From an uncultured bacterium (lineage in GTDB: Bacteria > Oederibacteriota > Oederibacteriia > Oederibacteriales > Oederibacteriaceae): a stretch of DNA of 64,000 nucleotides. Below, piece by piece: positions 20,564 through 23,484 of this stretch; the stretch's first letter is position 1; each line of letters opens with the position of its first letter. The DNA is taken from the NCBI GenBank assembly GCA_965112635.1, contig OZ218778.1:1312001-1376000 (forward strand), in the 5' to 3' direction. The notes beneath the pieces are model-generated. The model was given only the letters and a program-made list of their open reading frames with translations, did not search any database and was not told where the DNA came from. The position numbers and the translations under genes were made by a program.

Positions 20564-22240
20564 ATGAGTGAGCAGAAACCAAAGAAATTCATCTTTATCA
20601 CTGGTGGTGTGATGTCGTCCATCGGCAAAGGAATCGCCGGAGCTTCTATCGGCTGTCTTTTAGAAAGCCGCGGGTTAAAAATCACCCAGCAGAAATTGGA
20701 CCCCTATATCAATGTCGACCCTGGGACCATGAGCCCCTACCAGCACGGAGAGGTCTATGTGACCGATGATGGCGCTGAAACCGATCTAGACCTTGGGCAT
20801 TACGAACGGTTCACGCACAGCCATCTGACCAAAAACAGCAATGCCACGACCGGAAAAATCTATTATTCGGTCATCCAGCGTGAGCGGCGGGGCGACTATC
20901 TGGGAAGCACTGTCCAGGTGATCCCCCATATCACGGACGAAATCAAATCCAAGATCAAGGCTGTTGCTGACGAGAGCGATTCTGATGTAGTGATCGTGGA
21001 GATCGGAGGCACGGTCGGCGATATCGAAAGCTTGCCATTCCTAGAGGCAATCAGGCAGTTCCCCACGGATGCCGGCAAAGGGAATGTTTTATTTGTGCAC
21101 CTCACCCTTGTTCCCGCGATGAGTATTTCCGGAGAACTGAAAACAAAACCCACGCAACACAGCGTCAGCGAACTCAGGAAAGTCGGGATCCAGCCGGATA
21201 TTTTGCTCTGCCGTTCGATCAATGAATTAAACCAGGAAGTCAAAAGCAAGATCGCCTTGTTCTGTAATGTGTCCAAAGAAGCTGTCATTTCCGCCAAAGA
21301 CACCAGCCCTATTTACAACATCCCCTTGCTGTTCAAAAAGGAAGGCCTGGATGACATTATCGTGCGAATGCTGAATCTCAAAACGCCAGCGGCGGACTTG
21401 CGTAGCTGGGAGGCGATGGTAGAAAAGATCAGGCACCCAAAGCATGAGGTTACGATCGCCGTGGTCGGCAAATATGTCCAGTTGAGGCACGCTTACGAAA
21501 GCATCATCGAGTCCTTTACCCATGCTGGGGTCGCCAACGATTCTTTTGTCAAGCTCCACTGGGTAGACGCTGAAAATATCGAAAAAGAAGGGGCGGAAAA
21601 GTACTTGTCCGTGGCCAGCGGAATCCTGGTTCCGGGTGGATTTGGGCACCGTGGCATCGAGGGAAAGGTCATGGCCATCCGGTACGCCAGAGAAAATAAG
21701 ATTCCCTTCTTCGGGATTTGCCTGGGAATGCAATGTGCGGTGATTGAATTTGCCAGGAACGTCTTGAATTTAAACAAAGCTAATAGCAGCGAGTTCAACC
21801 CGGAGACGCCAAACCCGGTCATTCATCTTTTGCCTTCTCAGGAAGGGGTTACGGACATGGGAGGCACCATGAGGCTGGGGGCCTATCCCTGTCATATTGC
21901 CAAGGGAAGCAGAGCCTATGAAGTTTATCAGGCGGAGAATGTTTCGGAGCGACACCGTCACCGCTATGAATTCAATATGGATTACCGGGATCAGTTCGTT
22001 TCTCAAGGTATGAATCTAAGCGGTTTATCCCCGGACCAAAGACTGGTGGAGATCGTGGAGATCCCGGACCATCCCTGGTTCGTGGCCTGCCAATTCCATC
22101 CTGAATTTAAATCCAGGCCCTTAAAAGCCCATCCACTTTTCCGGGGGCTGGTAAAGCACGCATTAGACTACGCCGCCTCCAAAGCCAATATGAAAACCCC
22201 GGCCAAAGACATGTCCCTGAGCAAGGAAGAAGTCCGTTGA
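20564..22240 (+). CDS. pyrG: CTP synthase
   Basis: [44 protein letters not shown]. Confidence 0.97.
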
Positions 22241-23484
22241 CCATGGAGAAAATCATGCAGGTAGGGTCAATCAAAATAGGGAGGGGTTTGCCGTTTGTTT
22301 TTATAGCCGGCCCGTGCGTCATCGAGAGCGAAAAGCTTTGCATGCAAACCGCCGAGTTCTTGAGCAAACTGACGCGGGAGCTGGATATCCCTTTTGTGTT
22401 TAAATCCTCTTATGATAAAGCCAACCGATCATCTATAAAGAGTTTCCGCGGACCAGGATACCAGGAAGGCCTGAAAATATTAGAGAAAGTCAGGAAAGCA
22501 TTCAAGGTTCCCGTGCTCACTGATATCCATAGCGTGATGGAAGCAGAGGCCGCGGCCCGCAGCGTGGATTGCCTGCAGATCCCAGCATTTCTAAGCAGAC
22601 AAACGGACCTGATCGTGGCAGCGGCGAGGACTGGCCTGCCGGTCAACATCAAGAAGGCCCAATTCATGAGCCCGTGGGACATGAAAAATGTCGTGGATAA
22701 ATTTCTTTCCACTGGAAACGATAAAGTCCTCCTGACAGAACGGGGCACGTGCTTTGGCTATAATAATCTGGTGGTGGATTTCAGGTCTATCGTTGTCATG
22801 AAAAGATTTGGATACCCGGTCATTTTTGACGCGAGCCATAGCGTGCAGCTTCCCGGCGGAGCAGGGGACTCCTCAAGCGGAGACAGGCAATTTATCTTCC
22901 CCCTCGCTAAAGCAGCCGTTTCGCTGGGGGTCGATGGTTTGTTTATGGAAGTGCATCCTGACCCTGACAAGGCCCTTTCCGATGGACCTAACATGCTGGC
23001 ACTCTCGGAATTAAAGGATGTACTGGCCCATTTAAAGGCCATTGACCAGGCCGTGAAAGGTCATCTAGAGAACCAGGGGAGTAAAAAAAAACTAAAGATC
23101 TTCATTGATGGGGGTTCGCGGGGCAATCCCGGCAAGGCGGCCATCGGAGTCTATGTCACTAGCGAAGATGGCCAAGTCCTGGCAGCAGTCGGCCAGACTA
23201 TCGGGGTGACGACCAACAATGTCGCCGAATATAAAGCGCTCCTCTGCGCTCTACAAAAGGCTGAGACCCTAGGCGGTCACCATCTGGCCATTTTTTCGGA
23301 CAGTGAGTTGCTGGTCAAACAGTGCTCGGGAGAATATAAGGTCAAAGATGCCCGATTGAAGGGGTTGTCCACGGAAGTAAAAGAAATGAGGGCGAGGTTT
23401 AGCGAGGTTGTCCTCAAGCATATTCCCAGAGAGAAGAACGAAGTGGCCGATGAGCTGGTGAACAAAGCTCTAGACAAGGGATAA
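22237..23484 (+). CDS. kdsA: Fusion: Kdo-8-phosphate synthase (metal-dependent type) + RNase HI-like domain
   Basis: [36 protein letters not shown]-terminal [29 protein letters not shown]. Confidence 0.92.

Follow-up and report, generated by a model that had tools for sequence, protein, structure and literature searches.

The kdsA-rnhA gene analyzed here belongs to an uncultured peat bacterium of the phylum Oederibacteriota and joins, in one reading frame, a Kdo8P synthase (KdsA) and a type-1 ribonuclease H (RNase HI). It lies on the plus strand at positions 22237-23484 of a stretch of 64,000 nucleotides (nt) of contig OZ218778.1 (positions 1,312,001 to 1,376,000), which is called the window throughout and to which all coordinates refer. 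The gene and its parts are the following:

22237..23484, plus strand: kdsA-rnhA fusion open reading frame (ORF), 415 codons from TTG 22237; probable start ATG 22255, giving 409 amino acids (aa)
22255..23070, plus strand: Kdo8P synthase domain, metal-dependent type, assigned by NF003543, PDB matches, model fit and C27/H201/E238/D249
23083..23091, plus strand: run of nine A (A9; Lys codons AAA AAA AAA), placed precisely in the linker between the domains
23086..23481, plus strand: RNase HI domain (RVT_3 / archaeal-LC11 type) with catalytic D291 (23107-23109), E331, D355 and D405

The two-domain KdsA-RNase HI protein is encoded by one genuine gene, a single open frame of 415 codons without an internal stop. 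The listed TTG start at 22237 overlaps the TGA stop codon of the preceding gene, pyrG. GGAG stands 6 nt ahead of the ATG at 22255, with which the database entry P0001 (409 aa) also begins, so that this ATG is the likelier initiation codon and the product is likely to have 409 aa; residue numbers given below (D291, C27 and the others) nevertheless follow the 415-aa numbering from TTG 22237. Three Pfam domains were found above their curated cut-offs: DAHP_synth_1 at aa 11-273 (E 5.8e-75), RVT_3 at aa 291-411 (E 2.5e-24) and RNase_H at aa 284-411 (E 3.6e-11). The model of the fusion predicted by AlphaFold2 (AF2) has a mean predicted local distance difference test score (pLDDT) of 88.2 and consists of two confident domains, the values below 50 at the junction being confined to residues 278-282. 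A preliminary description of the locus had proposed a full Kdo8P synthase followed in frame by an RNase H domain with all four acidic residues, and the ORF, the Pfam domains and the alignment bear this out, the four residues being D291, E331, D355 and D405.

The KdsA half scored 419.9 bits with the KdsA equivalog NF003543 of NCBIfam (cut-off 242), 392.7 bits with TIGR01362 (cut-off 314) and 252.1 bits with PF00793 (cut-off 25.5). When it was compared with solved structures by phmmer, the matches included PDB 6mdy (E 3.2e-95) and the Aquifex enzyme 1fwn (E 9.6e-91), and the alignment extended to residue 276 of the 282 of the 6mdy chain; the half is thus complete to its C-terminal helix. Superposition of the predicted model on the TIM barrel of solved Kdo8P synthases with Foldseek gave template modelling scores normalized to the target, TM(target), of 0.92-0.96 and root mean square deviations of 1.3-1.6 Å over 258-276 columns. 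The alignment of fused proteins (A1) shows no variation at C27, H201, E238 and D249; we take these residues to be the metal ligands of the metal-dependent class, and PDB entries titled "C11N mutant" and "H185G mutant" are consistent with this assumption. The metal-dependent Kdo8P synthase of Aquifex aeolicus (1fwn) is 52-55% identical to the KdsA half, superimposes on it with TM(target) 0.94 (Foldseek) and carries Cys, His, Glu and Asp in the ligand columns, but its chain ends after the C-terminal helix where the fusion runs on into RNase H. Judged by these residues, the KdsA half looks catalytically intact.

The RNase HI half reached 86 bits with RVT_3 (gathering cut-off 21.6) and 43.8 bits with RNase_H (25.8). 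Its best solved counterpart, the 140-residue RNase H of PDB 3u3g/4h8k, was aligned nearly end to end over about 130 residues (E 2.7e-30), followed by the RNase H1 of Halobacterium (4e19, E 5.2e-26), the N-terminal domain of Rv2228c (3hst, E 1.3e-25) and RNase HI of Sulfolobus tokodaii (2ehg). Structure 3u3g is presumably LC11-RNase H1; D355 aligns with a residue that is D in 3u3g and N in the variant 4h8k. In the AF2 model the half shows the beta-sheet/helix pattern of the fold with pLDDT of about 90. Stand-alone RNases H of 132-136 aa which are 50-57% identical to the window domain exist in thousands, and the DEDD tetrad D291/E331/D355/D405 was invariant in all ten aligned fused sequences, which are about 52-55% identical to the window protein. 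According to PMC4423430, whose reference list lacks the PDB code, LC11-RNase H1, a homologue of the S. tokodaii enzyme, has been characterized and its structure solved. Stand-alone archaeal-type RNases HI (3u3g/4h8k, 4e19, 2ehg/3aly) have the fold and the DEDD motif in common with the fused domain, but they are free proteins of about 140-200 aa, whereas the domain of the fusion has no start of its own and is tethered by about 4 residues. From its conserved residues the RNase H half, too, looks catalytically intact.

The genome consists of one contig of 2,876,006 bases and is rated 96.9% complete. It contains one match to PF00075 and one to PF13456, both in the fusion ORF, so the check for another rnhA that the preliminary description had called for disclosed none; RNase HII is encoded elsewhere. 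The only second DAHP_synth_1 gene codes for a DAHP synthase of the aroFGH type (TIGR00034, 460 bits). The fusion gene is therefore the sole source of KdsA and of type-1 RNase H in the cell. Fused passenger domains in general can decay, and the RNase H half could be a decaying or repurposed passenger devoid of nuclease activity, although nothing direct points to this in the present gene. With the tetrad invariant among such divergent fused sequences, the domain 50-57% identical to thousands of stand-alone enzymes and no other type-1 RNase H in a nearly complete genome, we regard this reading as very improbable.

The fusion is not confined to the contig, a point that the preliminary description had left to an architecture search. 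Six further clusters at 90% identity (P0003-P0008; 413-425 aa; 51-55% identical), originating from independent metagenomes, have the same three Pfam domains; together with the window entry, 7 fused proteins stood among the 120 matches listed, and four further cluster members were found. Two KdsA entries, P0002 (451 aa) and P0009 (349 aa), have an internally repeated barrel segment and are probably chimeric assemblies of short contigs, not duplications. Among protein representatives clustered at 50% identity, the whole-protein query gave no KdsA with RNase H in the best 150 matches, the fused forms probably being hidden under KdsA representatives at that level of clustering; the 12 longer matches inspected there were KdsA joined to HAD, CBS, NeuB-like or unassigned extensions. 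Within the phylum the comparison set comprised 98 other genomes, all same-phylum kin, the window genome being alone in its family. An uninterrupted fusion was present in 1 of the 99 genomes, the window's own, and in 0 of the other 98; in 7 of these 98, kdsA and rnh stand in the same frame with 1-2 stop codons between them. A literature search revealed no description of a KdsA-RNase H fusion (subscription journals were outside its scope), in agreement with the preliminary description, whose author knew of none.

Homology to KdsA ends at about residue 274-279 and homology to RNase H begins at about 284-285, which leaves a linker of about 4-6 residues in which the A9 run is located. Variants with A7, A8, A10 or A11 meet a stop codon 1-6 codons past the run and would give products of 285-290 aa, the normal length of KdsA. 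An error in the length of the run could have falsely joined two genes during assembly: a 9-base homopolymer is a known risk for length errors, a single contig of 2.88 Mb would fit an error-prone long-read assembly, and kdsA and rnh are separate in all 98 other phylum genomes. Against such an artefact, which the preliminary description had named as a possible refutation, stands a contig of 189 nt from sequencing run X2 (a study other than that of X1), which covers 23050-23238 and spans A9 with 0 differences and 0 gaps. Contigs of the best holder of the stretch, run X1, end at the A9 run without bridging it; the coverage by runs X1, X3 and X4 lies elsewhere in the window and does not reach across the run. 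Reading of the sequence further showed that an A8 or A10 version would leave the RNase H frame without any ATG, GTG or TTG from the stop before it up to the catalytic Asp, so that the split version would not amount to a working pair of genes. The internal GTG at 23056 is a possible start for a free RNase H, and no Shine-Dalgarno sequence was seen before it. With the six further fused clusters from independent metagenomes added to these observations, an assembly artefact is extremely improbable.

The same run allows another reading, namely that A9 is a slippage site for RNA polymerase or the ribosome, which would yield the full fusion together with free KdsA of 285-290 aa, like tau and gamma from dnaX of Thermus. 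Such programmed slippage would set the KdsA:RNase H ratio above 1 and permit mixed tetramers. The sense strand of the gene indeed has a run of at least nine A/T right at the domain boundary, with close stops in both alternative frames, and all non-triplet lengths tested terminate 1-6 codons later. The composition of the genome lends some weight to this: of the 145 KKK tripeptides in its long ORFs only 5 are written AAAAAAAAA, where the 54% usage of AAA would predict about 23, and A/T homopolymers number 330 of length 8, 45 of length 9 and 1 of length 10, the single run of 10 or more contrasting with about 22 expected under a first-order model. The sharp fall-off may be due to counter-selection of slippery runs, or the assembly method may impose an upper limit on run length. 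According to PMC1088944, dnaX of T. thermophilus has nine As with stops nearby in the other frames and gives about 50% of short product, and many bacteria begin to show selection against such runs at a length of nine. Both genes have A9 in the sense strand and near stops, so that slipped transcripts encode a shorter protein reaching only to a domain boundary, but slippage has been demonstrated for dnaX, and in the fusion, a different gene, it is a possibility read from the sequence.

Several observations speak against slippage. The argument is post hoc; RNase H of the relatives often begins with Lys codons (ATGAAAAAAGCA in locus L011), so that A9 may have been left over from the former N-terminus; 46 A/T runs of at least 9 occur in the genome, some of them within long open frames by a crude stop-to-stop frame check; a stop shortly behind a frameshift is not unusual by chance (roughly a few per cent when both frames are considered); and the linkers of the other fused homologs are not all Lys-rich. 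The sequencing-run search returned no RNA run containing the stretch. We consider slippage unlikely. If it did occur, a single gene would supply the envelope enzyme in abundance, with a constant small share of its molecules bearing the sole RNase HI of the cell, perhaps in mixed tetramers, and a tau/gamma arrangement like that of dnaX would exist in a metabolic gene.

The surroundings of the fusion gene in the window are these:

19756..20529, plus strand: kdsB (CMP-Kdo synthetase), first gene of the cluster (Pfam CTP_transf_3, E 1.6e-48)
20564..22240, plus strand: pyrG (CTP synthase; Pfam CTP_synth_N, 1.5e-128, and GATase)
23516..23845, plus strand: small ORF of 109 aa with the strong Shine-Dalgarno sequence AAAGGAGG, a hydrophobic N-terminal part and a Lys/Arg-rich tail
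23931..24292, plus strand: rnpB (RNase P RNA, class A; RF00010, 298.5 bits)

The order kdsB-pyrG-kdsA-rnh-small membrane protein is that of the cluster phylum-wide. The 109-aa ORF had no match in Pfam or NCBIfam, and by tblastn its N-terminal part was found conserved immediately behind rnh in five or more other families of the phylum (L007, L013/L014, L016/L022, L027/L035, L034). The preliminary description had placed the fusion just upstream of rnpB; rnpB does lie downstream, with the 109-codon ORF in between, and is preceded by its own promoter-like site (23881-23909). One family of the phylum, too, has rnpB directly 3′ of rnh (L018 1976-2357, L029 2807-3188, L033 1008-1423, L020 264-731), at a spacing of about 80-100 nt in three of these loci and about 770 nt in L020, so that this neighborhood is partly conserved. 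Farther downstream (24241-26046, plus strand) lies an ORF of 601 aa for a multi-pass membrane protein with a weak C-terminal PA14 match, whose listed GTG start falls inside the 3′ end of rnpB and whose real start is probably further downstream.

Coordinates were tabulated for the 44 relatives with an RNase H match, and in 34 of them kdsA lies at most 400 nt upstream of rnh on the same strand; in the other 10 it is 1.6-6.2 kb off, on another contig, or was not found. Among 19 phylum loci read in detail, 15 have the order pyrG-kdsA-rnh, two have pyrG-rnh without kdsA, and two have neither gene beside rnh. The 25 distinct kdsA-rnh junctions comprise 12 in which the genes overlap as ATGA or GTGA and two in which they abut (TGATG, TAAATG), the rest having spacers of about 20-335 nt. 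In loci L021 and L023 (genomes G010 and G003, one family) rnh directly follows pyrG and kdsA is 4.6-6.2 kb away, an order which makes rnh, and not kdsA, the fixed tail of the pyrG cluster in that family. In one relative a degenerate additional rnh copy (G049:C2:116352-116727), interrupted by TAA, lies about 1.6 kb 3′ of kdsA, and the intact rnh is on another contig.

Lineages outside the phylum present a different picture. Among 80 kdsA loci listed from other lineages, pyrG is a neighbor in 39 and kdsB in 38, and rnh lies within 2.5 kb of kdsA in a single one (L048), which looks like a member of the same group, with the in-frame-stop arrangement known from the phylum. On metagenome contigs none of 41 rnh loci had kdsA beside it, and a search of such contigs with P0005 gave 51 loci, none of them fused. 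No paper on a pyrG-kdsB operon was found in the literature, again with subscription journals outside the scope.

The synteny bears directly on how the fusion arose. A neutral fusion after loss of intervening genes, as suggested in the preliminary description, was ruled out with respect to the gene loss, since kdsA and rnh are already direct neighbors throughout the phylum, often with a 4-nt overlap. Given this arrangement, a small change at the stop/start boundary would be enough to produce the fusion.

The synteny also bears on physical coupling, in which the KdsA tetramer would serve as a scaffold presenting RNase H domains, or the two enzymes would regulate each other, so that envelope supply would be linked to replication or R-loop control. 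KdsA is a tetramer in the solved structures, and by analogy four RNase H domains on the KdsA tetramer are plausible. The position of kdsA immediately 5′ of rnh in 34 of the 44 genomes and the frequent 4-nt overlap can be counted in favor of coupling, but the adjacency is phylum-specific, the one exception among the listed loci of other lineages looking like the same group; no metagenomic rnh locus of the 41 adjoins kdsA; and in L021 and L023 rnh stays with pyrG far from kdsA. A complex prediction for KdsA 1-277 and RNase H 283-415 (numbering of alignment A1) gave a score of 0.00, was run without controls and is used neither way.

The partners of this RNase H domain elsewhere weigh further against coupling. 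The best 120 longer proteins (228-727 aa) carrying it included 93 with Nif3 (PF01784), 8 with glyoxalase (PF00903), 2 each with HAD and PF01910, and 1 each with GNAT, cupin, PTPS and a PurN-type formyltransferase; 10 had no second Pfam domain and one was the window's own protein. The same type of RNase H is therefore fused to at least eight other unrelated families. The architecture RNase HI-Nif3/YbgI, a dinuclear-metal protein, is in itself very common, making up those 93 of the best 120 longer matches (P0129-P0244).

The closest known system is RnhC of Actinomycetales (Rv2228c, MSMEG_4305), in which RNase HI is joined to the acid phosphatase CobC. As in the fusion described here, a small RVT_3-type RNase HI is combined with a metabolic enzyme of an unrelated pathway; besides the match to 3hst given above, NF005567 matches residues 284-414 of the fusion. 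The match to this profile amounts to 132.4 bits against a cut-off of 326 and covers positions 2-133 of 378 only. The partner is CobC there and KdsA here, RNase H is N-terminal there and C-terminal here, and the fusion is fixed in a large clade there but occurs in 1 of the 99 phylum genomes here. By its sequence the Rv2228c-type protein is an analog of the fusion and not a member of the same family. In PMC7466739 the domains of the mycobacterial RNase HI-CobC protein are reported to be functionally dissociated in vivo, the linker to be variable, and fixation by drift is proposed. With respect to KdsA, other fusions likewise join operon neighbors, namely HAD (KdsC-like) in P0251, P0253, P0258 and P0249 and CBS in P0322; the partners there are Kdo-pathway or regulatory domains, whereas RNase H stands outside the Kdo pathway. 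RNase HI fused to a metabolic enzyme is already known in kind, the partner here being KdsA.

The fusion is read as a merger with separate functions on the strength of the promiscuous RNase HI fusions, the dissociation found for CobC and the fusions of KdsA with its neighbors. In the ancestral state kdsA and rnh would have been translationally coupled neighbors, with ribosomes already handing over at the boundary; the stop/start boundary between them would then have been lost, and the fusion may have been fixed by drift or, at most, for locking in the co-expression given by the 4-nt overlap, both enzymes keeping their usual separate jobs. The ORF, its domains and catalytic residues, the synteny and the junction are observed; that both halves are active enzymes, and independent ones, we infer. 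We hold it moderately likely that the single two-domain gene is a merger of the coupled kdsA and rnh, and a drift or co-expression fusion of independent domains.

Certain observations do not sit easily with such a merger. The fused forms have three types of linker, a short one in the window protein and P0003 and two unrelated long ones in P0004/5 and in P0006-8, and in a quick KdsA tree of 57 rows (7 fused, 25 phylum loci and 25 KdsA-only entries, every second of P0010-P0058) they fall at three places. The adjacency kept phylum-wide, together with the several linker types of the fused forms, could mean selection for proximity. A linker of about 4 residues implies that RNase H must sit against KdsA and is sterically not fully autonomous. 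The all-AAA KKK with its A9 in the linker is unusual for the coding DNA of this genome, and the junction may do more than join.

The diversity of linkers and the three places in the tree can also be counted in favor of physical coupling. In the approximately unbiased (AU) test a single clade of fused forms was not rejected (p = 0.211), so that repeated selection for the fusion is not shown. The dissociation of the domains in the CobC analog also speaks against coupling. The physical link between envelope synthesis and R-loop processing, raised as an alternative in the preliminary description, finds no support in the promiscuous partners, the adjacency limited to one phylum and the CobC case, and we judge it distinctly unlikely, below the level at which we would place slippage.

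For annotation, the gene should be kept whole, without splitting or "repair", and counted as both kdsA and rnhA. The A9 run at the domain boundary means that it might make two products. The coupling of kdsA and rnh is conserved across the phylum. As a merger of neighboring genes, the locus advises caution in reading "Rosetta-stone" fusions as proof of functional linkage, for this small RNase HI of archaeal type merges with any partner that happens to lie upstream, be it Nif3, glyoxalase, CobC or, here, KdsA. It offers a clean natural example of ATGA-coupled neighbors turning into a fusion protein.

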